The position numbers and the translations under genes were made by a program. The notes under the pieces were generated by a model that worked only from the letters and a program-made list of their open reading frames with translations, ran no database searches and was not told where the DNA came from. From an uncultured Candidatus Saccharibacteria bacterium (GTDB lineage: Bacteria > Patescibacteriota > Minisyncoccia > HO2-45-28), in contig CAZNNT010000001.1 of the NCBI GenBank assembly GCA_964574495.1, positions 5,194 through 69,193 of the forward strand: a stretch of DNA of 64,000 bases, given 5' to 3'. This document shows, in pieces, positions 2,333-49,321 of this stretch (position 1 is its first letter; the number at the start of each line of letters is the position of its first letter).

Positions 2333-2364
2333 TGCCCTCTATATTACCATATTATGCGAAAAAT

Positions 2365-3090
2365 TCAAGGCGATAGAATGGTTTTGGCAAAATCCCAAAA
2401 TTCGGGATGGTTTTGCTTAGTTTTTAACCAAAACCACCATTCCGCGCCCCATAAATAATATTCGTCAAAACCGCTGGCTTTGGCGTAATCAATCGTGTTT
2501 TTGAAAAAATCCAAATCAAAATGTTTCAATTGCTCGTCAAGCGCTGTTTCGTAAAGTTGTTCGGGAAGCCACGGCTCGGCCGCGAGCTCTGAGACAATAA
2601 ATTTTTTCTCATGCTCTCCGGTAAGCCGTCTTATTATTTTTTCTTTAAGTCCGAAAAACTCCGGCGGCAGATGATATTCAATAAAGCCGAGCGTATCATT
2701 ATAAATCCTGCGATACATTGTCGTTCCGAAAATATCTCCGCGTTTAACCGCCCCAAACCACAATCCCAATTCGCCGCTATCCGTAATTAAGACCGGGTGA
2801 TTGGAATCCAGGGATTTGACCAGCGTTATTTCTTCATCCAGAAATTCTTTATCCAGCGGCGGACATTCGCCGAATTTTAAAAACGGCTCGTTTTCTACCT
2901 GCCAATATAAAAGCGCCGGATGATTTTTATAGCGATTTACGACGGCTTCGAGCCCATTAGGGCTCATGACATTCGGGCCAGCGCGGCAGTTTCCGGCCAA
3001 CAGCCAAAATAACCCGCGCGCCGGAGAACGCGGCTTCATCCATTTGATAATCCAAATTTTGAAAATCAAACTTGTCTTCCTCCCGTTCAA
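2365..3090 (-). CDS. Glycoside hydrolase catalytic TIM-barrel portion (GH42/GH5-like NEP acid/base motif), 3' portion of the frameshifted gene
   Basis: Contains NRYKNHPALLYWQVENEPF, a catalytic acid/base context. It overlaps the upstream ORF by 134 nt in another frame. The Met start is probably artefactual, and the true gene likely reads through with a frameshift near 2975-3000. Confidence 0.5.
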   Translation of the reverse strand: MNGRKTSLIFKIWIIKWMKPRSPARGLFWLLAGNCRAGPNVMSPNGLEAVVNRYKNHPALLYWQVENEPFLKFGECPPLDKEFLDEEITLVKSLDSNHPVLITDSGELGLWFGAVKRGDIFGTTMYRRIYNDTLGFIEYHLPPEFFGLKEKIIRRLTGEHEKKFIVSELAAEPWLPEQLYETALDEQLKHFDLDFFKNTIDYAKASGFDEYYLWGAEWWFWLKTKQNHPEFWDFAKTILSP

Positions 3091-4213
3091 TCATGTCCCA
3101 ATAAGCGATGAGACGGATGCGCTTCGGCTTTAATTCTTTTATAATCGCGTCATAATTTTCGCGCCAATAAGCCCCCTCACCTACTTTGCCATCTTTTGAA
3201 TTTGCGCTTTGCGCCACGGCAAAGTAGGTGTGGGGGTCAGACCCGAGCTTTTCGGAAAATTTTTGCGAGAATGTAACGCCCCAGACAATCGAGCGGTTTT
3301 CATCCGACGCCCAGTTTACTCGCGTCCATGCGTCTGACTTGTAATATTCGCCGACGGCAAGCCATAAAACGCCGAAAGAAATAATCGCGAAAGCCGTTAT
3401 TTTTCCGGCCAGAATCCAGCCGGAAAACCGCTCGCGAAGTATCAGCCATCCGCCCAAAAAAACAAAAAGGTATTGGAGATTGCGTGTTGATTCAACCAGA
3501 GGCGGCAAACCGGTTGAAATTGCCGCGTAAATTAAAATGGACCCCAAACCGGCGTAAGCGCGGTTAAACAAATAAAGCCGCTTGTTTTTGAACTCGTCTC
3601 TGCCTTCCGGATGAAAAATCTTTTTTCTGAAAGCCGGCACGGCAAGAAAAATAAGCACCGTCAAAAACGAGGTGAACTTTATCCAAATAAGCCCGGAAAA
3701 AAAACCGGAAAAATCGAAAACCATTTTGGTAAGATTGCTCGCGAGCCCAAAACAAAAAGCGGCTATAACCGCAAGCATAATCACTTTTAACCGAACTCCT
3801 TTTTGTTCAATGAAAAATAATATCAGGCCGCCTAAGATTAAAATTATAAAACCGGCTAACTGGTAAAAGGTTAAATTGATGTCCAAAAGCGCGGAACTGA
3901 AAATCAAGGTGAATATCGGCGCCAAAGCCCAGATTAAAATTATTGAACTGGAGGCCTCGCCGTAAAAGAGGGCGGCAAAATAAAAAAATAGCGCGAGTAT
4001 TGAGACCGCACCGGTTAAAAAGGTAAAACCGAATTCGGAAAAATTAAACAATCTGAATCCGAAAGGCGCGAGAAAAACCGTAAAAACGCTCAAAATTCCT
4101 ATCCAAAAAGTATAGCCGATGGGATTGGGATAGGATTTTTTTAAAAGCAGTTTATCTATTACAGCCGAACTTCCGCTCACGAATTGCGAAGCCACCGCGA
4201 ATAAAAACCACAT
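2957..4213 (-). CDS. EamA/DMT-like 10-TM membrane domain fused to the N-terminal part of a glycoside hydrolase (5' portion of a frameshifted gene)
   Basis: Residues 1-290 are polytopic helices with an SSAVIDKLLL motif typical of EamA. The C-terminal 120 aa (YWDMIEREEDKFDFQNLDYQMDEAAFSGARVILAVG) resemble the N-terminus of a TIM-barrel GH. The ORF stops at 2957 inside what should be a continuous GH domain. Confidence 0.55.
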   Translation of the reverse strand: MWFLFAVASQFVSGSSAVIDKLLLKKSYPNPIGYTFWIGILSVFTVFLAPFGFRLFNFSEFGFTFLTGAVSILALFFYFAALFYGEASSSIILIWALAPIFTLIFSSALLDINLTFYQLAGFIILILGGLILFFIEQKGVRLKVIMLAVIAAFCFGLASNLTKMVFDFSGFFSGLIWIKFTSFLTVLIFLAVPAFRKKIFHPEGRDEFKNKRLYLFNRAYAGLGSILIYAAISTGLPPLVESTRNLQYLFVFLGGWLILRERFSGWILAGKITAFAIISFGVLWLAVGEYYKSDAWTRVNWASDENRSIVWGVTFSQKFSEKLGSDPHTYFAVAQSANSKDGKVGEGAYWRENYDAIIKELKPKRIRLIAYWDMIEREEDKFDFQNLDYQMDEAAFSGARVILAVGRKLPRWPECHEP

Positions 4214-4270
4214 AGATTAATTATAAAGCAAACTAACGCAAAGGCATTAAATGAACCATTGCCCGATTAA

Positions 4271-4299
4271 CTTGACTTTTTATTTATAAGGTGCTATAA
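4271..4299 (+). promoter_or_regulatory. Consensus sigma70-type promoter (TTGACT-17 bp-TATAAT)
   Basis: TTGACT at 4271-4276, a 17-bp spacer and TATAAT at 4294-4299, about 95 nt upstream of the 4396 start codon. Confidence 0.6.
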
Positions 4300-4395
4300 T
4301 TAAAAAGTAGTATTAAGTACCTTTCTAAAAAAGTGCCCTTGGAGCTTCGCTGTTCTTGGGGCAGATGTAAAATCCACAAAAAAAGGAGGTGTGTC

Positions 4396-4575
4396 ATGTT
4401 CAGGAATATAGAGAGGGAAGTTTGGGGTTACTGCGTGGCCGTTATCGGGGCTTTCGTGGCCGACTTCTTCTTCTGGTACCAGATATATGCCTACATCGGG
4501 TTCGTCGTGTTCATTTTGGGCTTGACGATGATGTTCGGCCCACCCGAGATCTTCAAGGTCTTCAGGAGAAAATGA
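4396..4575 (+). CDS. Small two-TM membrane protein (59 aa), unknown function
   Basis: ATG at 4396 is preceded by AAAGGAGGTGTGTC, a strong SD with a 7-nt spacer. The product is hydrophobic (VWGYCVAVIGAFVADFFFWYQIYAYIGFVVFILGLTMMFG). The ORF appears more GC-rich than its AT-rich surroundings and is followed by a strong terminator. The track's 80-aa version starts upstream without an SD. Confidence 0.6.
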   Translation: MFRNIEREVWGYCVAVIGAFVADFFFWYQIYAYIGFVVFILGLTMMFGPPEIFKVFRRK

Positions 4576-4617
4576 CAACTGTCCGTATGGCCACAAGCCG
4601 GCCGGACGGAAACAAGC

Positions 4618-4667
4618 GGGGGAATCCGTCCAATCCGGATTCCCTCTTTTTTATTTTTTTTTATTTT
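4618..4667 (+). terminator. Rho-independent terminator
   Basis: Stem GGGGGAATCCG/CGGATTCCCTC with a 7-nt loop, followed by CTTTTTTATTTTTTTTTATTTT. Confidence 0.75.
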
Positions 4668-4779
4668 CTTCACGCAAAGGATTCGCCTTTGCAAGTACTA
4701 TCCTCCCCAAATCCCACGATCGTGGAAATTAGAAAGGATGAAAAACTTTGCAAAATTACAAAATGGTTATTAATTTCAA

Positions 4780-5343
4780 TCAAAAAATAATAATGCTAAC
4801 CACCGTAAAATAAACAAGCAGACTTATTAAATCCTGAATAATGGTCGCCACGGGCCCCGAGCCCAAAGCCGGATCAGAATGTCTTTTGTATAAGAAGCTT
4901 GGAATAATCACGGCTAAAATCGGAGCCAGCGAAAGATTGATCAAAAAGGTCAGTCCTATGACAAATCCAATCGCGGAGGACTTAAGCCAATACGCGGCAA
5001 AAACCGCTAAAATCAAGCCGAAAATAACGCCGAGTCCGACGCCGACTACGCTTTCTTTAAAAATGTAAGTCCAGAAACGGGTTTTTTTGAACGTAAGCGC
5101 CCGCACATAAATAGTTTCGGTCTGCGTGCCCACGGCATCGCTTAGATACACGATAATCGGAATAAAAAAAGCGAGCCTTACATCGGCCGAAAGAATAGCT
5201 TCGTATTTAGAAATAATCAGTGTGGCAAGAATTCCGCCCAAAAGCCCGACAAAAAGCCACGGAACACGGCGTTCAATCAAATGCTCTACGGATTCTTTGG
5301 CGTCGTCTTCGGCCACATACTCTTTTTTTGGCTGTATCTCCAT
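4780..5343 (-). CDS. MgtE-like divalent cation transporter membrane domain protein (stand-alone TM domain)
   Basis: Five TM helices; C-terminal DPALGSGPVATIIQDLISLLVYF matches the MgtE/SLC41 signature (D-P-A-x-x-x-P-x-x-T-x-x-x-D). No N-terminal CBS or MgtE_N domain is present. Confidence 0.55.
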   Translation of the reverse strand: MEIQPKKEYVAEDDAKESVEHLIERRVPWLFVGLLGGILATLIISKYEAILSADVRLAFFIPIIVYLSDAVGTQTETIYVRALTFKKTRFWTYIFKESVVGVGLGVIFGLILAVFAAYWLKSSAIGFVIGLTFLINLSLAPILAVIIPSFLYKRHSDPALGSGPVATIIQDLISLLVYFTVVSIIIF

Positions 5344-5416
5344 ACGTTAAATATACCATATTCAATTTATTTTTATTTTAATACTTTGATGCCCCTCGGG
5401 CTGCGAATTTATATTT

Positions 5417-5959
5417 CTATAATACATACTCCCAGCCTGGTTTCCAGGATTTTGTTTTTCGCCAATCTTCGGCGAACGCCTCATCCCATGTTTTATTTTT
5501 AAGCAAAACTTCAAGGGCGAGCTGCGGGGCTTTATGCGAAACTAAGGCGACGCTTTTGCCGTCGTAATTTTGTTTTAAAAATTCAAGAAAATCGGCAACA
5601 CGCGTTTTTACATCCTCGTAGCTTTCGCCGTCGGGAAATTTTTCGGTTATCATTTTTTCTTGCATCGGCTCGACAATTTCAGACGAGTGGCCGTTAAACT
5701 TGCCGTAATTGCACTCGCGCAATCTTTGGTCGGGGATAATTGGTGCCACTCCTTCAAAAACTAGTTTTGCGGAGTCAACTGCCCGTCTCAAGTCGGAGCA
5801 AAAGACAACATCAAATTTTTTGTCTTTGATTTGGTCTTTTAGTTCAATAGATTGTTTTACACCAAGCTCCGAAAGCCCGACGTCAGACCACCCGGACGAG
5901 ATTCCTTTCTCGTTATCCTTAGTCGTTCCATGTACGAAATAAGTTATTTTGATTGGCAT
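5417..5959 (-). CDS. Histidine phosphatase family protein (phosphoglycerate mutase-like)
   Basis: The N-terminus (ITYFVHGTTKDN) carries the HG catalytic histidine motif variant of PGAM-like phosphatases. Length is 180 aa. Confidence 0.55.
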   Translation of the reverse strand: MPIKITYFVHGTTKDNEKGISSGWSDVGLSELGVKQSIELKDQIKDKKFDVVFCSDLRRAVDSAKLVFEGVAPIIPDQRLRECNYGKFNGHSSEIVEPMQEKMITEKFPDGESYEDVKTRVADFLEFLKQNYDGKSVALVSHKAPQLALEVLLKNKTWDEAFAEDWRKTKSWKPGWEYVL

Positions 5960-6396
5960 TATTTATTAAACTCAATATATTCTTTAACCCCCCTCAGCCA
6001 GCCTCCTTTGAAAAATTTTTCGGGTTTAAAATTGTTTGGGTCAACCCAAAGCAATTCCGAGTGTCTTTCCGAAGTTTTGACTTCGCCACTTTTCAATTCA
6101 CTCTCATAACCGATGGCAAATATTCTAACGGTGGGATTGCCCGGCGCATGTTCGACTCTTTCATGCCTCATAAAAATGATCGGCTCGCCGATGGTGTATT
6201 TGATGTCTTTACCCAGCTCCTCCGTCATTTTGCGTTCGATAATTTCATCCAAAGGTGTTTCGAACTCGTCTTTTTTGATTCGTCCTCCGGGCAAATCCCA
6301 GTCGCCAAAGCTATCTTTAAGTATTAAAAGTTTGCCGTCTTTTTTCAAAAAAACTTTTACCGCCACAAAATATTTTTCTTTTTCTTCTGTATCCAT
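5959..6396 (-). CDS. NUDIX hydrolase
   Basis: LPGGRIKKDEFETPLDEIIERKMTEELG is a Nudix-box-like segment (LPGG...E...ER..TEELG). Confidence 0.75.
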   Translation of the reverse strand: MDTEEKEKYFVAVKVFLKKDGKLLILKDSFGDWDLPGGRIKKDEFETPLDEIIERKMTEELGKDIKYTIGEPIIFMRHERVEHAPGNPTVRIFAIGYESELKSGEVKTSERHSELLWVDPNNFKPEKFFKGGWLRGVKEYIEFNK

Positions 6397-6407
6397 GTTC
6401 CGAAAAA

Positions 6408-6977
6408 TTACTTTGATAAATCCTCAATGGTTTGGATCACCTCGGGAAGTTCTAGACAGGGTTTTTCGCCTTCAATCGCGCCGGAAAAATGGCCCATTTT
6501 GTGTTTGATTATGACTTCCGCGCCGAGTTTTTCCTTAAAAATACCAGCATATTTCAGGTCAACATGCGGGTCGTTGTCGGAATGGATCGCCACAAAGCCG
6601 TTTTTTGATTTTGATTTGATATTTACAAAATCAATCGGCGTCTCAAAAAAGTTTTTGATTTCGTCATAACCCAAATCCTCGGTAAATCCGGCGACAAAGA
6701 CCACGCCGCCCACTCTTTGATTTTTCTGCAAAGTTTCCAAATAGCGCATTATTGTAACGCACCCGACGCTATGACCTATGAGAAATAGGTTTTCGTCAGG
6801 TTGCCCTATTTTTTCGGAAAGGAATGGAACCCACGCGTTTTGCTTAGGATGTTCGGTGTCGGGGAACGCCGGAATTTTCACTTCAAATCCTTTGGATTCA
6901 AGTTCTTTTTTCACTGACGGATACCAGCAATAGTCTGGCGCCCCCTCCCAACAATGGACTATGATTGCTCTTTTCAT
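6408..6977 (-). CDS. Alpha/beta-hydrolase fold serine hydrolase (RBBP9/YdeN-like esterase)
   Basis: GHSVG nucleophile elbow; 189 aa with a compact alpha/beta hydrolase layout and downstream Asp/His candidates (HSDNDPHV, HKMGHF). Confidence 0.6.
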   Translation of the reverse strand: MKRAIIVHCWEGAPDYCWYPSVKKELESKGFEVKIPAFPDTEHPKQNAWVPFLSEKIGQPDENLFLIGHSVGCVTIMRYLETLQKNQRVGGVVFVAGFTEDLGYDEIKNFFETPIDFVNIKSKSKNGFVAIHSDNDPHVDLKYAGIFKEKLGAEVIIKHKMGHFSGAIEGEKPCLELPEVIQTIEDLSK

Positions 6978-7098
6978 ATCCCTATTATGCTACGCAGCAT
7001 ATTACGCAGCAAGGTTTTACCGGGCGGTTTTGTTTAAATCGTTGGTGTAAAATAAATTATTTTTTCTTCACGCAAAGGTTTCGCCTTTACCTACGCCT

Positions 7099-7824
7099 TT
7101 ACTTAAAAAGCAAGACGGCGCCTAGAGCGGCGGCGTAGTTGCCGAGGCGAGATTTTAGAACCGGCGCCGGGATGCCGTTTTTGAAAAACTCCTTTTTTAA
7201 TTTTGAGACGAAATTTTTCCTTTTCATTATTACTCCCCCGCCGATGATTATTGCCCGCGGTTTATATGGCTTGATGAGTTTTGCCAAATTCTTGCCTAAA
7301 AATTCGGCGAGTTTCGTATCGTCTTTTTTATCTCTAATTTTTTGATACTCACCCTCCCAACGCTCCGGATATTCAAATTTTTTGATTTTTAAAATTTTTC
7401 CCTTTCTGCCGGAGGCCCGGCCGATTCCCGTGCCAATAGTCAAAAAAAACGCGTTTTTAAAACCTTTTCCGGCTCCAAGCAAATATTCCCCTCTGGCAAA
7501 ACAGCGCGCGTCGTTATCAAGTTTTAATTGAACTCCCGTCGGGATTATTTTTTGAAAATTAAAATTTTTAACCGCGGGAATATTGGGACTAAAACGCAAA
7601 ACCGCGCCACTAACCACTCCGGCTGTCCCGATGCCGATGCCCGATATTTTTTTGACGCGAAAAAAACCGCCAATAAGTCCTTTAAGTTTATTTTCAAAAC
7701 CGGCGCGGGTTTGAGGGGTCTTTATTTCGCGATTTTGCAAAATTTTTTTCTTATTCCACAAAATCCCCCGAATATTCGTCCCGCCTATATCTATGCCGAT
7801 GATATTTTTCAATTTATTGGTCAT
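7099..7824 (-). CDS. ROK-family sugar kinase (glucokinase/N-acetylglucosamine kinase-like)
   Basis: IGIDIGGTNIRG ATP-binding motif and LDNDARCFARGE. The chosen start is the Met of MTNKLKNIIGIDIGG. The 35 codons upstream in the track ORF translate the tRNA-like element and are probably not coding. Confidence 0.7.
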   Translation of the reverse strand: MTNKLKNIIGIDIGGTNIRGILWNKKKILQNREIKTPQTRAGFENKLKGLIGGFFRVKKISGIGIGTAGVVSGAVLRFSPNIPAVKNFNFQKIIPTGVQLKLDNDARCFARGEYLLGAGKGFKNAFFLTIGTGIGRASGRKGKILKIKKFEYPERWEGEYQKIRDKKDDTKLAEFLGKNLAKLIKPYKPRAIIIGGGVIMKRKNFVSKLKKEFFKNGIPAPVLKSRLGNYAAALGAVLLFK

Positions 7825-7825
7825 T

Positions 7826-7935
7826 TGGCTGCCGGGCTTGGATTCGAACCCCCGCCATAGCGGGACAAGCAAGATGCTCGCCTCTTCATCCCGCCAGAGG
7901 CGGGACAAGAAGGGCGATGTCCTATTCACCCCGCC
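7826..7935 (-). other. Degenerate tRNA-like element / tandem 39-40-nt CCCGCCA-initiated repeats derived from tRNA-Gln
   Basis: Shares GGATTCGAACC (T-loop) and AGGGCGATGTCCTA (anticodon stem region) with the adjacent tRNA-Gln and ends with CCA on the minus strand. It lacks a D-arm and a pairing T-stem. Three direct CCCGCCA repeats begin at 7851, 7890 and 7930. Confidence 0.4.
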
Positions 7936-8281
7936 AAATTTTACTTGATAATTCTCTCCCAGCCGAAGCTGCGGGACTAGGATTCGAACCTAGATACTCG
8001 CCTCCAAAGGGCGATGTCCTACCATTAGACGATCCCGCAGCTTCGGCTATGAGTTTTTTAAAAGCATTACCGCCATGCCAACTTTTTATTTGTTCCTCTC
8101 TCTTTCGCGCGTCTTCATAATTTAAATGCTTTTCTGAATAAACAATATCCCAGGGTTTGCTAAATTTTGTTGCACACACATACCCCTTGTTGTGGCGCTT
8201 TAGCCTTTCAATCGGATTCAAGGCGGTAATGCCAATATAGTACTTATTATTTCTATTTTTCAATATATAAAGATTGACCAT
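7922..8281 (-). CDS. GIY-YIG nuclease domain protein (small stand-alone, YhbQ-like); the 3' end runs through tRNA-Gln
   Basis: Start MVNLYILKNRNNKYYIGITALNPIERLKRHNKG carries GIY-YIG-type YIG and RLKRHN motifs. The domain is complete by about residue 81. The remaining 38 codons to the stop at 7922 overlap the same-strand tRNA-Gln, so the true C-terminus is uncertain. Confidence 0.6.
   Translation of the reverse strand: MVNLYILKNRNNKYYIGITALNPIERLKRHNKGYVCATKFSKPWDIVYSEKHLNYEDARKREEQIKSWHGGNAFKKLIAEAAGSSNGRTSPFGGEYLGSNPSPAASAGRELSSKIWRGE
7969..8039 (-). tRNA. tRNA-Gln (anticodon UUG), 71 nt, CCA not encoded
   Basis: Minus-strand read: TGCGGGA (acceptor), U8, D-arm GTCT/AATGGTA/GGAC, anticodon stem TCGCC/GGCGA with loop CUUUGGA, variable GTAT, T-arm CTAGG/TTCGAAT/CCTAG, acceptor TCCCGCA, discriminator G. 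U1-A72 as in E. coli tRNA-Gln. 8-bp leader/trailer complementarity (GCCGAAGC/GCTTCGGC) extends the acceptor stem. Confidence 0.85.
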
Positions 8282-8382
8282 AAATTCTTGTACCGCCACA
8301 GACGGGATGAAGCGGGGCAAGTTAGACGACCCGGCAATTTATAAATTATACGCTATTTTTTCTGTCTTGACAAAGATAAATC

Positions 8383-9486: not shown

Positions 9487-9515
9487 TTGACATAAACACT
9501 TTTTTAATTTAAAAT
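9487..9515 (+). promoter_or_regulatory. Putative sigma70 promoter (TTGACA-17-TAAAAT) for the 9570 gene
   Basis: TTGACA at 9487-9492, a 17-bp spacer and TAAAAT at 9510-9515. The downstream SD TTAAGGAGG sits 8 nt before the ATG. Confidence 0.5.
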
Positions 9516-9569
9516 ACCTTGGGAATTGATTTTTGAAATAACCCTCAACCCTTAAGGAGGCATTAACAG

Positions 9570-10628
9570 ATGCATGTAACGCTTGCCGGCAATATGATGG
9601 CTCCGTCAGTCGCGTTTACTATGCTTAGCCAGCATTTGGCCGCCCTCGGCATTCAAACTATTTCGTTGCTTGGATGCGGAAAAGAAATAGATTTATCCTC
9701 TAACGCTCTCCGCGACTTAGTTTATCTGGCAGATGTGATTCTTGTTGGCATGTCCGGGCCGGAAAAACTTGCTCAAACGGAGCTGGAAATTGCTAAAAAG
9801 GCGCTGGGACAAGACGTCCCTTTCGGCTTCTACTCCGACACTTATGATGTCTTTCGCAGGCCGTGGATTCCAGAATTTTTGAGAAAAGAAGCATCGTTTT
9901 TGTTCGTATCCCAAGAAGAAGAAAAAGAAGAAGCCCAAAAACTCTTCCCAAAAGCCAAAATCGTGGCCTCGGGCAATCCGACCTGGGAAGATTTTTTCTC
10001 GCCGCGATTTTCCAGAGATGAAATTCGTTCGCGCTTCTACATCCCAACCCAAAAAAAAGTTATTCTATGCTCTCTCGGCACTGCGCTTGAACCAAATTTA
10101 ACAATGCTGAAAAATCTGAATAATGCTTTGTTCAAAGAACATTTCTCGTGGACGATTCTCATCGGCATTCATCCTGGAGATCAAAATTATAGAAACGACC
10201 CGAGGATTTACGCAAAAAGTCTTGAACCAAATATTCAACTTGAACCAAACATTCAAATGGAGTTCGTCCCCAGAAACGAAATGCCGACAATGGACATTAT
10301 CCCGGGCGCGGATTATGTGGTGGATACGCCGGGCAGTTCCATCGGTATCAACGCGGCCTGCCTGCGAGTGCCCGTCATATGTTACTGTTCAAAAGAAGCG
10401 TTAGACAACTTGGAAGAATCAATCGGCAAAAGGTCGTGGAGACCATGTGAGAACGGCGTTGTTCTTCCTGTTTACAACCCCGACGATCTCTACTTGGCCT
10501 TTAGACAAGATTTTACGGATATTATTGATAGACAGAAATATATTTTTCCCAAACCCTTCGAAAAAGGCCAAGCAATAAGAATCATAACTGAAATCTTGCA
10601 AAAATACGGCTCTGATAAAAAGAGCTGA
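9570..10628 (+). CDS. GT-B fold glycosyltransferase-like protein (MurG/GT28-like C-terminal domain), function uncertain
   Basis: Strong SD (AAGGAGG). The N-terminus (MHVTLAG, beta-strand/helix) and the C-terminal half (KVILCSLGTALEP ... DYVVDTPGSSIGINAACLRVPVICY) resemble the two Rossmann halves of GT-B enzymes. No diagnostic family motif found. Confidence 0.35.
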   Translation: MHVTLAGNMMAPSVAFTMLSQHLAALGIQTISLLGCGKEIDLSSNALRDLVYLADVILVGMSGPEKLAQTELEIAKKALGQDVPFGFYSDTYDVFRRPWIPEFLRKEASFLFVSQEEEKEEAQKLFPKAKIVASGNPTWEDFFSPRFSRDEIRSRFYIPTQKKVILCSLGTALEPNLTMLKNLNNALFKEHFSWTILIGIHPGDQNYRNDPRIYAKSLEPNIQLEPNIQMEFVPRNEMPTMDIIPGADYVVDTPGSSIGINAACLRVPVICYCSKEALDNLEESIGKRSWRPCENGVVLPVYNPDDLYLAFRQDFTDIIDRQKYIFPKPFEKGQAIRIITEILQKYGSDKKS

Positions 10629-10636
10629 AAACCAAA

Positions 10637-10666
10637 CCGCCCCGACAGTTGTCGGGGCGGTTTTTT
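10637..10666 (+). terminator. Rho-independent terminator (bidirectional, between convergent genes)
   Basis: CCGCCCCGAC-AGTT-GTCGGGGCGG followed by TTTTTT. The reverse strand is also T-rich after the stem. Confidence 0.8.
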
Positions 10667-10686: not shown

Positions 10687-12072
10687 CTAGGGAGCCGGAA
10701 CCATCCCCTGAAGCCAAAATGGAGCATTTTGGTCAATTGGCGCAGGAGTTGGCGGAGGTGTATAGACATTAGCCGAACCCGGGGTAGCCGGAGTCAGTTG
10801 CAACCAGAATGGAACCGGCGCAGGAGCGGCTGGAGCCGGGGTTGGAGCGGGAGTTACGGCGGGCGCTGGCGTTACTTCCGGTGTTACGGCCGGAGTTACT
10901 GGAGCGGCTGGAACCGCCGCGGCTCCAAACACTTCAGCCAGTTTCGCTCTTGTTTTCGGCCCGACAAATCCGTATCCGGCATCGCCTGCTTTGGCTACGC
11001 CATATTTAACCTGGAATTTTTCAACGGCGCGGGTTGTAAGAGAGCCGAAAAATTCTGTTTCATTTCCTGCTGAACCCACACCAGATGAAGCAATCGCCGT
11101 ATCGGCATCGGAGTTAAGCAATTGCTGGATACGCTTAACATCTTCTCCTTTTGAACCAATCGTGAGAGCGCGGTTAAAGACAGGGCTGACCGCGGCAGCG
11201 ACCGGCGAGGGTGCGGCCGGCACTACCGGCAACTCTGGAGCCGCCGGAGCCGCGGCCTCTGCAAACACTTCAGCCAGTTTCGCTCTGGTTTTCGGCCCGA
11301 CAAGTCCGTATCCGGCATCGCCTGCTTGAGCTACGCCATATTTAACCTGGAATTTTTGGACGGCTTTTTCAGAAAGCGAACCGAAGAATTCGGTTTCATT
11401 TCCTGGAGAACCAACGCCTGACGCCGCAATTACGGTGTCAGAATCAGAGTTTAACAACTGTTGAAGGCGCTTAACGTCTTCACCTTTAGAACCGATGGTT
11501 AAAGCCCTATTAAAAGCTGGGCTTACAGCCAATGCCTGGGCTGATGGCTGGGCCGCTGACGACGGAACCGCGGGTGTAGCCGGCGTTACGGTCGGTACTG
11601 CGGGTACAGCCGCAACTGCTGCGGTCTGCGAGGGAATGCTCGGCGCGCTACTTCCTCCGCCACCCCCTCCTCCGCCACCGCCTCCTCCGCCACCGCCTCC
11701 GGCAGCGCAGGTATCAGCTGAAACACTTATAGTGGAAGTTCCGAAAGGCGCGTTAGTCGGGTTGGTAACAGTTATTTTTGAACTACTGGTGGTGCAGGAA
11801 AACCCGGCCGTAATTGACCCGACTACCGTGGCGGTCAGTTTTCTGCGATTAGTTGAAGTAACTTCATAGCTTGCCCCCGGCGACATACCGACATCAAAAG
11901 AAGTGGAATTCACATCAATGTAATCGGCGTTAAAACCCGTGCCCGTAACATTTAAAGTTACGCTATTAACATCTAGATCAACATTAGTGTCAAAAGTAAA
12001 GTCGCCCAAAGCGGCCAACGCGAACATCGGTATAAAGCTGGCAGTTAAAATCGTTAGATAGATTTTTTTCAT
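10687..12072 (-). CDS. Secreted low-complexity protein with two peptidoglycan-binding-like (PG_binding_1-type) repeats and a 16-residue poly-Gly tract
   Basis: N-terminal signal/anchor (MKKIYLTILTASFIPMFALAA). Two ~115-aa repeats contain FNRALTIGSKGEDVKR(L/I)QQLLNSD ... KFQVKYGVA(Q/K)AGDAGYG(L/F)VGPKTRAKLAEVF. Pro/Ala-rich linkers and a G16 stretch are present. Confidence 0.6.
   Translation of the reverse strand: MKKIYLTILTASFIPMFALAALGDFTFDTNVDLDVNSVTLNVTGTGFNADYIDVNSTSFDVGMSPGASYEVTSTNRRKLTATVVGSITAGFSCTTSSSKITVTNPTNAPFGTSTISVSADTCAAGGGGGGGGGGGGGGGGSSAPSIPSQTAAVAAVPAVPTVTPATPAVPSSAAQPSAQALAVSPAFNRALTIGSKGEDVKRLQQLLNSDSDTVIAASGVGSPGNETEFFGSLSEKAVQKFQVKYGVAQAGDAGYGLVGPKTRAKLAEVFAEAAAPAAPELPVVPAAPSPVAAAVSPVFNRALTIGSKGEDVKRIQQLLNSDADTAIASSGVGSAGNETEFFGSLTTRAVEKFQVKYGVAKAGDAGYGFVGPKTRAKLAEVFGAAAVPAAPVTPAVTPEVTPAPAVTPAPTPAPAAPAPVPFWLQLTPATPGSANVYTPPPTPAPIDQNAPFWLQGMVPAP
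10920..11600. repeat. Two tandem ~345-bp intragenic repeats encoding the PG-binding-like modules
   Basis: A near-identical DNA segment (cttcagccagtttcgctct.gttttcggcccgacaa.tccgtatccggcatcgcctgct...) occurs at about 10935-11040 and 11270-11375, with flanking similarity. Confidence 0.6.
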
Positions 12073-12106
12073 GGGCGATAATTTAGTTTTTAATTAAACC
12101 GCTAAA

Positions 12107-12922
12107 TTATCGCGTTGCCCAAAAGTTAAGAGTGCCCCGTGGAGTAAAGGCGGCGCCGGCAAGATTGGTCAATTCAACTCCAATGGTTGCCGAACCCGTG
12201 GATGAAGCGCTGGCAATTACCATACCTACGTTATTAGGAGTGGCAGCTACAATCAGCGAGCTTGTCGCCTGAACAAAAACTCGGGTAAAGCTTGTAGTTA
12301 TTCCCGTGGCGCCAGAGCAAATAATGCCTGTTGTTGTGGTTGCAGGTATAGAAATCTGCGCGAGGTTGCAAGTTCCGAAAACCATACTTGTCAAAGCGGT
12401 TCCATCGCCAACCGTTAAAGTACCTTTCGTCGCAAAGTCGCCGTTTGAGCCGGTTGTGGTCGCAAAGCCGTTAACATATAAATTTTTGCCGACCTCAAAC
12501 TCATTCGTTGTGGAAGCGTTGCCGGTGATGATAATGTTGTCAACCGCGGCATTGCCCAAAGTGACATTGCCGTTAAGATTTGAGGCTCCGGTCACAGTCA
12601 AAGTGCCCGCAGTCTCAAAATTTCCGTTCGCGCCTGTTGTAGTGGCAAAACCGTTAACATAAAAGTTGCTGCCGACCTCAAATTCATTCGTTGTTGAAGC
12701 GTTGCCGGTGATGATAATGTTATCAGCCGCGGCATCGCCCAAAGTTACATTGCCATTTAAAGTCGTGGCTCCGGAAGCCGTAAGCGTCCCGCCCGTGTTA
12801 ACGTTTGAACCAATAGTGGTTACGCCGTAAGTGGTGAGAGCAACCAGTAAAAACGACAAAATTGTCGCCGCAATTATGCCGCTGACCTGACGAGTATCTA
12901 AAAAACTTGAAACCTTTTGCAT
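12107..12922 (-). CDS. Cell-surface tandem-repeat protein (Thr/Gly/Asn-rich, beta-helix/adhesin-like) with an N-terminal membrane anchor
   Basis: N-terminal hydrophobic anchor IIAATILSFLLVALTTYG, then two ~61-aa tandem repeats (TLT..GA..LNGNVTLG.AA.DNIIITGNASTTNEFEVG.N.YVNGFATTTG.NG.F.T.G). Confidence 0.55.
   Translation of the reverse strand: MQKVSSFLDTRQVSGIIAATILSFLLVALTTYGVTTIGSNVNTGGTLTASGATTLNGNVTLGDAAADNIIITGNASTTNEFEVGSNFYVNGFATTTGANGNFETAGTLTVTGASNLNGNVTLGNAAVDNIIITGNASTTNEFEVGKNLYVNGFATTTGSNGDFATKGTLTVGDGTALTSMVFGTCNLAQISIPATTTTGIICSGATGITTSFTRVFVQATSSLIVAATPNNVGMVIASASSTGSATIGVELTNLAGAAFTPRGTLNFWATR
12440..12805. repeat. Two tandem ~183-bp intragenic repeats
   Basis: Near-identical DNA copies (ccgttaacata.aa.tt..tgccgacctcaaa.tcattcgttgt.gaagcgttgccggtgatgataatgtt...) encode the repeated protein module. 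Confidence 0.6.
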
Positions 12923-48530: not shown

Positions 48531-49321
48531 CACAAGTCTGACTTGTGGTTTACCAATCTTCTAAAAGAAACTGCGCTACGTCTTCTCTCTTTTCCGCGTG
48601 CGATATCAACATGTCGCGCGCGGCTTGTTTGAAATCGGCGTCTGGCAAACCAAGATCTGCGAATACTTTTGCGTCAATAATTGGCGACAATTTACCAAAT
48701 GCCGCTGTTTGAAAACTGGAAAATGAGTAAGTTTTCGCCCATTCCCATGCTTTGTTAAATTCTTTGACAGCTTTTGCGAAACCGCCGGGATAAAGCTCAA
48801 ATACGTTTTTCACAACAATATAAGCCAGAATATAGTTTAGATCTGCGTCATCATGTATAGTACGACTTTTATAGGAACCCTGAAAAATGCTTCCTTTTTC
48901 ATTGTATTTTTCATTAAAAGACAGGGTCATGCTCCCGCATAAACGTTGTAAAAACTTAGAAATTCCTCCCTCATGAATTTCGTAAAGCAACAAATGAAAA
49001 TGATTTGGCATTAGTGTCCACGCCAATACCGCCGCCAGAGGATCACGCTCTGGCCAATGTTCCGACCGCGAAAAAAGTGGCAAATCTTGTTCATCTTTTG
49101 TCCAATTGCGATTTTGAAAATCATCATTAAGAAGATAAAGCGTTTTGACATAACGCCAATGATCGGCTTTATCGCGTACAATTTCCATTCCGCGCGCACC
49201 GCGTTTTACAACATGCACAACCGAACCAACCGAAAATGGTTCTACTCTCATATTTACATATGTAACATTATTCTATACATACACAAGTCAGACTTGTGGT
49301 GGTCCACAAGTCTGACTTGTG
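48531..49321 (-). mobile_element. REP/RAYT-type unit: HUH Y1 transposase gene flanked by 17-bp palindromic REP-like sequences (one downstream, an inverted pair upstream)
   Basis: CACAAGTCTGACTTGTG at 48531-48547, CACAAGTCAGACTTGTG at 49282-49298 and CACAAGTCTGACTTGTG at 49305-49321 bracket ORF 48550..49251. A fourth, diverged copy lies at 31723. Confidence 0.65.
48550..49251 (-). CDS. HUH-motif Y1 transposase-like protein (REP-associated tyrosine transposase/IS200-TnpA-like)
   Basis: LMPNHFHLLL is an HUH motif (H-hydrophobic-H in a hydrophobic strand). The downstream tyrosine-rich segment DADLNYILAYIVVKN resembles the Y1 catalytic-Tyr helix. 233 aa. The gene appears AT-rich and is flanked by palindromes. 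Confidence 0.55.
   Translation of the reverse strand: MRVEPFSVGSVVHVVKRGARGMEIVRDKADHWRYVKTLYLLNDDFQNRNWTKDEQDLPLFSRSEHWPERDPLAAVLAWTLMPNHFHLLLYEIHEGGISKFLQRLCGSMTLSFNEKYNEKGSIFQGSYKSRTIHDDADLNYILAYIVVKNVFELYPGGFAKAVKEFNKAWEWAKTYSFSSFQTAAFGKLSPIIDAKVFADLGLPDADFKQAARDMLISHAEKREDVAQFLLEDW

Follow-up and report, generated by a model that had tools for sequence, protein, structure and literature searches.

Bacterial small membrane proteins such as MgtS, MgtR, AcrZ and KdpF modulate transporters, and the sedentary chromosomal integrons of the Vibrio type carry small orphan and toxin-antitoxin cassettes in arrays, where an attC palindrome closes every cassette. Type I toxins are proteins of fewer than 70 amino acids (aa) that contain a transmembrane region and end in a charged or aromatic tail (Fozo et al. 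2010, PMC2887945); YonT has 58 aa, and Hok, TisB and DinQ are type I toxins with antisense RNAs (PMC2887945, PMC8309996). Morons are recognised by a promoter and terminator of their own, a deviating guanine plus cytosine (GC) content and their presence as an addition relative to related genomes, and the first to be described, gene 15 of HK97, encodes gp15, a small inner-membrane superinfection-exclusion protein (PMC3594210). Here we describe a unit of about 410 bp in a 64,000-nucleotide (nt) stretch of contig CAZNNT010000001.1 (GenBank assembly GCA_964574495.1), the whole of which is called the window. The host is a tiny bacterium of the groundwater type, placed in Candidatus Niyogibacteria within the candidate phyla radiation. 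The unit places an open reading frame (ORF) of 59 aa among predicted signals for its expression, is foreign in its codon usage and differs between closely related strains. We lean, with guarded confidence, towards the view that it is an expressed, laterally acquired, moron-like gene for an accessory membrane peptide, whose role would probably be exclusion, immunity or membrane perturbation.

The locus was compared with L001, which is 20.5 kb of Candidatus Niyogibacteria CP066691, with L007 from the more distant relative RIFCSPLOWO2_01_FULL_45_48, and with L008 (GCA_016187675.1, JACPJG010000020.1), which is 98% identical to the left end of the window. The features of the unit and its borders are as follows.

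4236..4244, plus strand: left copy of a 9-nt direct repeat, ACGCAAAGG, where homology to L001 ends.
4272..4300, plus strand: sigma-70-type promoter, TTGACT (4272-4277), a 17-nt spacer and TGcTATAAT, with an extended -10.
4275..4308, no strand assigned: 14-bp inverted repeat, a candidate operator, ACTTTTTATTTATA-N6-TATAATTAAAAAGT, with 13 of 14 positions complementary.
4307..4395, plus strand: predicted 5' untranslated region (UTR) of about 89 nt, with a hairpin at 4334-4363 and the ribosome-binding site at 4383-4389.
4396..4575, plus strand: ORF of the 59-aa peptide MFRNIEREVWGYCVAVIGAFVADFFFWYQIYAYIGFVVFILGLTMMFGPPEIFKVFRRK, with its TGA at 4573-4575.
4579..4609, plus strand: 3' UTR hairpin, -16.3 kcal/mol, z = -3.2.
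4618..4667, plus strand: intrinsic terminator, with its stem at 4618-4646 followed by the T-run T6-A-T9.
4643..4772, no strand assigned: conserved intergenic element with T-run, hairpin and the palindrome CCACGATCGTGG; right border of the variable unit.

The original prediction had named the promoter a perfect TTGACT-17-TATAAT. Both elements and the 17-nt spacer are indeed present, and with 11 of 12 consensus matches the site is near-consensus. Its -10 element TATAAT occupies 4295-4300, and a TG at 4292-4293, inside the spacer, extends it, so that with this addition the site is the strongest match of its kind in the window. A consensus scan of both strands of the 64 kb gave five sites with at least 11 of 12 matches, among which the cassette promoter alone combines that score with a 17-nt spacer and the extended TG. 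Transcription is predicted to start near 4306/4307, about 7 nt past the -10 element, and the leader, once put at some 95 nt, is accordingly present at a predicted length of about 89 nt. Covering this promoter from the -35 element to about +1 is the 14-bp palindrome, which suggests control by a dimeric repressor. An equal inverted repeat arose in one of 2000 dinucleotide shuffles of the promoter region. Comparable inverted repeats stand at four loci in the 64 kb, this one included, and of the remaining three, two are at positions to be expected of intrinsic terminators, right behind a gene or between genes. The pattern itself is unique among the window and the fetched loci, and a scan of viral contigs for it gave zero matches. 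Control by a repressor can only be proposed, because the cassette brings no regulator gene with it.

Over its full length the leader shows no unusual degree of structure (z = -1.1), but its hairpin at 4334-4363 is stable (-16.9 kcal/mol, z = -3.1), and the full transcript, compared with shuffles, folds at z = -2.2 with three discrete stable hairpins. As first described, a Shine-Dalgarno sequence precedes the ORF: AAGGAGG at 4383-4389 is followed by a 6-nt spacer and by the ATG at 4396, and so full a motif within 20 nt upstream of the first candidate start codon is found in two of 53 large ORFs of the window. The probability that this site is unpaired varies with transcript length between 0.25 and 0.56, and its occlusion is not above that in shuffled leaders (0.56 versus 0.46 ± 0.18). 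CCUUUCU at 4320-4326 is able to pair with the ribosome-binding site in the fold of the leader taken by itself. A 9-nt complementarity between 4320-4328 and 4729-4737 proved to be at chance level and was set aside. At E <= 10, Rfam returned noise over 3900-5000, with no riboswitch, small RNA or leader family. The leader also holds a minimal start-stop pair, ATG-TAA, at 4365-4370, 26 nt before the true start, which is probably due to chance. At the other end of the transcript the GC-clamped terminator that had been proposed is borne out by an 11-bp stem with seven G-C pairs (-19.1 kcal/mol, z = -3.7). This stem folds on the minus strand too (-16.9 kcal/mol), and it probably also ends the convergent transcript of the neighbouring MgtE gene.

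The 59-aa frame is very probably the true coding frame, to judge by its composition. Its GC content at codon positions 1, 2 and 3 is 0.40, 0.33 and 0.78 (chi-square P = 5.6e-7), and it ranks first for excess of GC at third positions among the 391 window ORFs of at least 40 aa. The ORF is GC-rich, as had been noticed, at 0.49 compared with 0.30-0.36 in the flanks and 0.445 in the window, and almost the whole of the excess falls on third positions. When its nucleotides were shuffled, 282 of 5000 sequences stayed open and 14 of those were equally hydrophobic. These results bear on the possibility that the unit is non-functional, being either a chance or decaying frame in an imported fragment or the source of a non-coding RNA. 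Three frames are open across the segment; the frame is a singleton without a homologue in any frame, its transcript folds into the three hairpins described above, and the neighbouring gene is itself broken, all of which could be accommodated by such an explanation. Yet the periodicity of GC lies in exactly the frame set by the ribosome-binding site, AAGGAGG stands at the optimal spacing, the shuffles seldom reproduce an open and hydrophobic frame, no Rfam family is matched, and the stop codon, the 3' hairpin and the terminator follow one another in order. We consider a non-functional unit unlikely. The antisense ORFs reported to overlap the cassette are present, with 98 aa at 4300-4596 on the minus strand and others of 67 and 37 aa, but have neither a ribosome-binding site nor a promoter. 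Protein searches with the 98-aa antisense frame and with the third open frame found no homologues, and as the search with the sense frame was empty too, the insert is not a recognisable fragment of a known gene read in another frame.

The codon usage of the ORF sets it apart from the genes around it. GC at third codon positions (GC3) averages 0.48 over host ORFs, with a gene-to-gene standard deviation of 0.06 and a maximum of 0.63, and the 0.78 of the 59-aa ORF was reached by none of 842 host windows of 58 codons. An index of the codon adaptation type is 0.57, compared with 0.74 ± 0.03 for host genes. All ten phenylalanine codons are TTC, which makes up 26% of such codons in host genes (P = 1.5e-6), and three of the four arginine codons are AGG. 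This composition is most simply read as a sign that the gene was recently acquired from a donor whose third positions are GC-rich.

Comparison with the related strains points in the same direction as a presence and absence difference. The cassette lies, as had been stated, between a frameshifted gene and an MgtE-like channel gene: an EamA-glycosidase fusion gene is on its left and an MgtE homologue on its right, and it is convergent with MgtE and divergent from EamA. The window MgtE and QQG46408.1 of Candidatus Niyogibacteria CP066691 fall into one cluster at 90% or more, and in blastn comparison window 4773-7018 is 96-97% identical to L001. In the same comparison nothing in L001 corresponds to window 4234-4642, which spans exactly the promoter, the leader, the ORF and the stem of the terminator: homology stops at 4233 and resumes at 4643. 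The unit of about 410 bp is missing at the same site in both L001 and L007, and in the latter only 60 bp, free of any cassette, lie between the genes for ROK and EamA-glycosidase. In a profile of 100-nt steps, identity to L001 is 97-100% over 2443-2942 and 94-100% over 2996-3295, falls to 57-74% across the EamA membrane domain at 3296-4095 and stands at 80% over 4096-4195, so that the cassette edges a divergent patch of about 1.35 kb within DNA that is otherwise 94-100% identical. The divergence at 3296-4195 indicates either that an allele was replaced locally or that the domain is exposed at the surface and evolves fast.

Other cassettes of the same build stand at this site in L001 and at a different junction in L008. 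The gap of L001 between EamA-glycosidase and ROK/MgtE (L001 11553-13510) is taken up by a 196-aa ORF, a 248-aa ORF and a HicB-like gene; the first two lie on the same strand as the 59-aa ORF, each behind a promoter with 12 of 12 matches, and neither has a match in Pfam. Their GC3 of 0.42-0.51 is host-like, unlike that of the 59-aa ORF. The 196-aa ORF has an HEETH motif, similar to HExxH, the 248-aa ORF is rich in lysine and glutamate, and the HicB-like antitoxin gene stands alone. In L008 a cassette of 477 bp on the opposite strand (440-916) separates the stop of the glycosidase gene from the start of a 484-aa gene, at a junction equivalent to window 2333-2376 or so, where the spacer of the window is only about 35 bp. 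This cassette has an 11/12 promoter (TTGACA-16-TATACT), a leader and a 101-aa ORF without a Pfam match, and its terminator, a hairpin with a T-run, was read by eye, the automated terminator scan having omitted the hairpin. The promoter might have been part of a shared ancestral flank, but this was discarded: beyond the consensus hexamers, the upstream regions of three cassettes align no better than shuffles. The strain-specificity of the unit, its foreign codon usage and the cassette-swapping hotspot all lay beyond the single-sequence view from which this work started.

The presence and absence pattern also bears on the suggestion that the peptide is a small membrane regulator of the neighbouring channel. 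A transporter subunit of this kind, a small regulator or accessory of MgtE or of EamA-glycosidase that would parallel MgtS or MgtR, is recommended by the position of the ORF directly between both transporter genes, and the divergent EamA half and the cassette together form one replaced patch, whose parts were perhaps exchanged together. The proposal is weakened, however, since a strain whose MgtE DNA is 97% identical has no cassette. L007 lacks it as well, the codon usage is foreign and unlike that of both neighbours, the EamA-glycosidase gene is broken here by a 47-nt deletion, and the peptide has no sequence relation to known small regulators. We regard a transporter subunit as very unlikely.

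The borders of the unit suggest how it might have been gained. The sequence ACGCAAAGG occurs three times in the 64 kb (at 4236, 4672 and 7070), where 0.77 occurrences are expected by chance, and all three copies are at rearrangement junctions. The first two bracket the cassette at a distance of 436 bp, and the right one, at 4672-4680, supplies the 5' arm of a hairpin, GCAAAGG-ATTCG-CCTTTGC at 4674-4692 (-9.8 kcal/mol, z = -3.5). Their position around the cassette, with the left one exactly at the end of the homology to L001, suggests that the cassette was gained or replaced through recombination at the hairpin element. The element as a whole (4643-4772) is 91.5% identical to L001 11374-11503, and shorter copies are found at L001 12456-12514 and at window 7057-7088, directly after a relocated ROK gene. 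In L001 two copies of the T-run and hairpin flank the 248-aa cassette, one on its 3' side and one on its 5' side before HicB. The palindrome CCACGATCGTGG belongs to the long copies, within a further 80 nt past the hairpin. Rfam has no match for the element, and scans of JGI metagenome and IMG/VR contigs for it gave zero matches. A transposon with a 9-bp target-site duplication was also considered and set aside, as there are no terminal inverted repeats at the cassette borders; it is weakened further by the T-run inside the right border, which is part of the conserved element and not of the insert.

It might be supposed from these borders that the 59-aa unit is a member of an undescribed cassette-exchange system of the Niyogibacteria, built of modules of promoter, orphan ORF and terminator. 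Cassettes would be swapped between strains at intergenic sites by way of the T-run and the hairpin ACGCAAAGG-N5-CCTTTGC, and a hairpin-recognising enzyme would drive the exchange, for which the Y1/HUH transposase encoded at window 48550-49251 could be named. The basis for this is four cassettes (59 aa in the window, 196 aa and 248 aa in L001, 101 aa in L008), together with the element in four copies, a single bracketing repeat of 9 nt and a ROK gene that was relocated along with a piece of the hairpin. No integrase is among the Pfam matches on genes within ±10 kb in L001, and a crude test found no HxLRH-type box II motif in window ORFs of at least 150 aa. The layout would be like that of an integron, but one that has no integrase and whose cassettes express themselves. 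We offer such a system as an improbable extension. The transposase gene itself (minus strand) is IS200-like and matches Pfam Y1_Tnp at 34.5 bits. A perfect hairpin with a 14-bp stem lies directly upstream of it at 49282-49320, and its sequence is unrelated to the element at 4674.

Searches for relatives of the peptide returned the peptide itself and nothing more. A k-mer and HMMER search of 5.8 billion clusters and a full phmmer pass over 1.84 billion representative proteins each recovered self only, in the former case from one 97.9-kb NCBI contig. Back-translated scans with a tblastn check found nothing in 185,579 species genomes, IMG/VR and JGI metagenomes, and collections of phages and plasmids were likewise empty in tblastn and blastn. 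The Pfam matches, to DUF7550 (15 bits against a cutoff of 27) and ECF-ribofla_trS, were hydrophobic and below threshold, and there was no significant match of the peptide in NCBIfam, PHROGs, PADLOC or PDB. Neither the window nor the fetched loci contain paralogues or tandem or dispersed copies. Exact look-ups of the peptide and of the MgtE and His-phosphatase proteins of the window led to no further contigs. The peptide is consequently an orphan and, if made, a new small membrane protein without a family; as it has no homologue, nothing marks it as a conserved part of any known complex.

A phage remnant in the form of a holin or pinholin-like lysis protein would share with the peptide its small size, a possible hairpin of two helices, a highly basic C-terminus and the moron-like anatomy of the gene. 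No holin of PHROGs or Pfam is matched, though, no endolysin or phage gene is nearby, and tblastn found no match in 50,697 phage records at E <= 10 or in IMG/VR at E <= 1e-3. Such an origin seems extremely unlikely.

The product was correctly described as a small hydrophobic protein: it has 59 aa and a grand average of hydropathy (GRAVY) of 0.81, and 27% of its residues are aromatic, ten of them phenylalanine. Its hydrophobic stretch is 39 residues long, with Kyte-Doolittle peaks at about residues 12-26 and 30-46 and, in an 11-residue profile, a dip between them at W27-Y28-Q29. The C-terminus, PPEIFKVFRRK, has a net charge of +3 and the N-terminal flank a net charge of 0. How often such a peptide would cross the membrane is less clear than the original prediction of two transmembrane segments had implied. 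A crude sum of insertion free energies, with literature values of the Hessa scale, is negative for no stretch but residues 30-48, which makes this a firm segment, whereas the first segment carries Asp23 and is marginal. AlphaFold, run without an alignment, drew one continuous helix over residues 2-47 at a predicted local distance difference test score (pLDDT) of 88. Two transmembrane segments in a tight hairpin with both ends cytoplasmic are plausible, and one firm transmembrane helix with a marginal or interfacial helix fits equally well.

These properties recall the type I toxins, to which the locus had been likened. Under this explanation the peptide would depolarise the membrane, and its mRNA would be restrained by a small RNA, either antisense or trans-acting, by a structured leader, or by both. 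A length of 59 aa, a hydrophobic helix and the basic and aromatic tail FKVFRRK are generic features of such toxins (PMC2887945). The long leader with its stable hairpin and the additional 3' hairpin would suit the same role, as would the ability of CCUUUCU to pair with the ribosome-binding site. The length is also like that of YonT and of TxpA, which has 59 aa, and the gene occupies an intergenic gap in a variable region where relatives have antitoxin-type genes for HicB, MazE and helix-turn-helix (HTH)-Fic. What does not agree is found at the levels of RNA and copy number. There is no antisense promoter with at least 9 of 12 matches in 4260-4780, the best having 8 of 12 and a poor -10 element; a convergent MgtE transcript would overlap the shared terminator stem only; and no other sequence of the window proved, in silico, to be complementary to the transcript over at least 14 nt. 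No small RNA of Rfam is present and the ribosome-binding site is not occluded beyond what shuffled leaders show. The gene is single-copy and matches no toxin, holin or defence family, and to have the strongest promoter of the window would be odd for a toxin gene unless it were repressed. The likeness holds for the protein, in size, helix and tail, but not for the RNA-level and copy-number traits that were examined, and we think it doubtful that the unit encodes a type I toxin.

For the moron-like accessory peptide that we prefer, the following course of events can be envisaged. The unit would have arrived by recombination at the hairpin element and would be transcribed from about 4307 unless a dimeric repressor sits on the 14-bp palindrome. 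Its product would enter the cytoplasmic membrane, with residues 30-47 as a firm transmembrane helix and residues 9-26 as a second, marginal helix, probably forming a hairpin with both charged ends cytoplasmic. As to its role, we would guess at an accessory function such as morons and variable islands tend to bring, be it exclusion or immunity towards a phage or a toxin, or a weakly membrane-perturbing action, and rank these by analogy above the alternatives; the peptide is probably not a housekeeping subunit. Several considerations weigh against this account. The promoter, the start site and translation are all predicted from the DNA, and with no homologue the coding frame lacks evolutionary support of the kind given by covariation or by the ratio of nonsynonymous to synonymous substitutions (dN/dS). 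The palindrome could be structural and not an operator, and the cassette has no repressor gene. Avoidance of T-runs in a phenylalanine-rich gene could be partly behind the C-ending codons, to which translational selection could also contribute. The repeat of 9 nt is short, and attention was drawn to it only in hindsight. The unit is not linked to any donor, phage or mobile-element gene, and no recombinase for the hairpin came to light. Exclusion, immunity or perturbation, finally, is proposed by analogy alone.

The genes flanking the unit are those for EamA-glycosidase, MgtE, a His-phosphatase, a NUDIX protein and ROK. The two that adjoin it, and a set of sites belonging to the first of them, are given here.

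2365-4213, minus strand: EamA-glycosidase fusion gene, with a 47-nt deletion near 2943-2995 that breaks it.
4780-5343, minus strand: MgtE homologue of 187 aa, consisting of the transmembrane domain alone.
4211-4225, minus strand (also at about 13553 in L001 and about 6001 in L007): TATAAT sites of the EamA-glycosidase gene.

What had been taken for a frameshift is the 47-nt deletion relative to CP066691, within a stretch that is otherwise 100% identical, by which the single 634-aa EamA-glycosidase gene of the relatives becomes ORFs of 418 aa and 241 aa in the window. Either a recent pseudogene or an assembly error could account for the break. In three genomes TATAAT is placed exactly 6 nt before the ATG of this gene, without a ribosome-binding site, and the gene is probably expressed from a leaderless mRNA. 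The window MgtE lacks two cytosolic parts that canonical MgtE has, the N-terminal domain and the CBS domains. The ROK sugar-kinase gene adjoins MgtE in CP066691 (L001 10561-11313), whereas the window ROK gene (7099-7929) is 2 kb away beside tRNA-Gln and is 85% identical to the L001 copy; a fragment of the hairpin element lies directly past its stop.

The surrounding region has some further peculiarities. Unlike CP066691, the window has no MazE, NUDIX or C39-peptidase genes between His-phosphatase and MgtE. A 47-bp sequence upstream of a serine-hydrolase gene (window 6971-7017; L001 6974-7018 and 8677-8723) is duplicated in CP066691, at 98% identity, upstream of a MazE-like gene. A mechanically called ORF with a GIY-YIG nuclease domain (7922-8320, minus strand) overruns the tRNA-Gln gene (7968-8039, minus strand), and its true stop or start therefore probably differs. 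There is a strong promoter, TTGTCA-17-TATAAT, at 8373, and at 9487-10660 a lone plus-strand unit among minus-strand genes has an 11/12 promoter (TTGACA-17-TAAAAT) and a 352-aa ORF without a Pfam match, just past whose stop is a perfect hairpin with a 14-bp stem (10634-10663). Long tandem and direct repeats, in 183-nt units and with a 336-nt period, lie within two GC-richer genes at 10899-12776. One encodes a protein with a peptidoglycan-binding domain and the other has a weak bactofilin-like match; they are probably genes for repetitive cell-surface proteins.

Bacteria of the candidate phyla radiation (CPR) have tiny genomes in which much strain-level variation is unexplained. The present locus is a clean case, with strains that are 94-100% identical around it and yet differ at a single spot by entire orphan genes that are self-expressed, one of them with codons foreign to the genome. 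Should the peptide be made, it would be a tractable candidate for the function of accessory genes in an episymbiont, be it exclusion or membrane perturbation, and hairpin-linked exchange, were it general, would give CPR genomes a new path of gene flow. For the present, the unit counts as a well-documented orphan accessory gene. Such genes are common, and no new mechanism is implied.

A comparison with the systems considered at the outset helps to place it. In common with the bacterial modulators MgtS, MgtR, AcrZ and KdpF, the peptide is hydrophobic, below 60 aa and encoded beside transporter genes, but it is not co-conserved with either transporter, has no homology to these proteins, is transcribed separately (convergent with one neighbour and divergent from the other) and has foreign codons. 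Like the cassettes of integrons, the genes at this site are short and mostly orphan and vary by strain at one fixed position, with a conserved palindromic element after each, a short repeated core and a HicB remnant in the sister strain. Here, in contrast, no integrase, attI or Pc is nearby, the units have consensus promoters and terminators of their own, and the hairpin has a 7-bp stem without a demonstrated attC layout of R''/L''-L'/R' and exists in two to four copies. With type I toxins the peptide shares its size, hydrophobic helix and basic or aromatic tail, and its gene shares the long 5' UTR and an intergenic gap of a variable region; it differs in having no detectable antitoxin RNA gene, repeats, paralogues or sequence similarity, in the consensus strength of its sense promoter and in a ribosome-binding site without excess occlusion. 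Most of these toxins, moreover, have one helix, whereas the 39-residue stretch possibly holds two.

The phage morons offer the nearest likeness in anatomy. As in a moron, the unit has its own promoter and terminator, is wedged between genes that are adjacent in relatives, has a base composition that is off that of its neighbours and is predicted to encode a small membrane protein. It is not, however, in a phage or prophage, its flanks being cellular transporter and sugar-kinase genes, and the peptide is unrelated to gp15 of HK97 or to YebO and has no known exclusion phenotype. Orphan small hydrophobic genes in variable regions are familiar objects, and among them the 59-aa unit is unusually clean in its anatomy, its codons and its contrast between strains.

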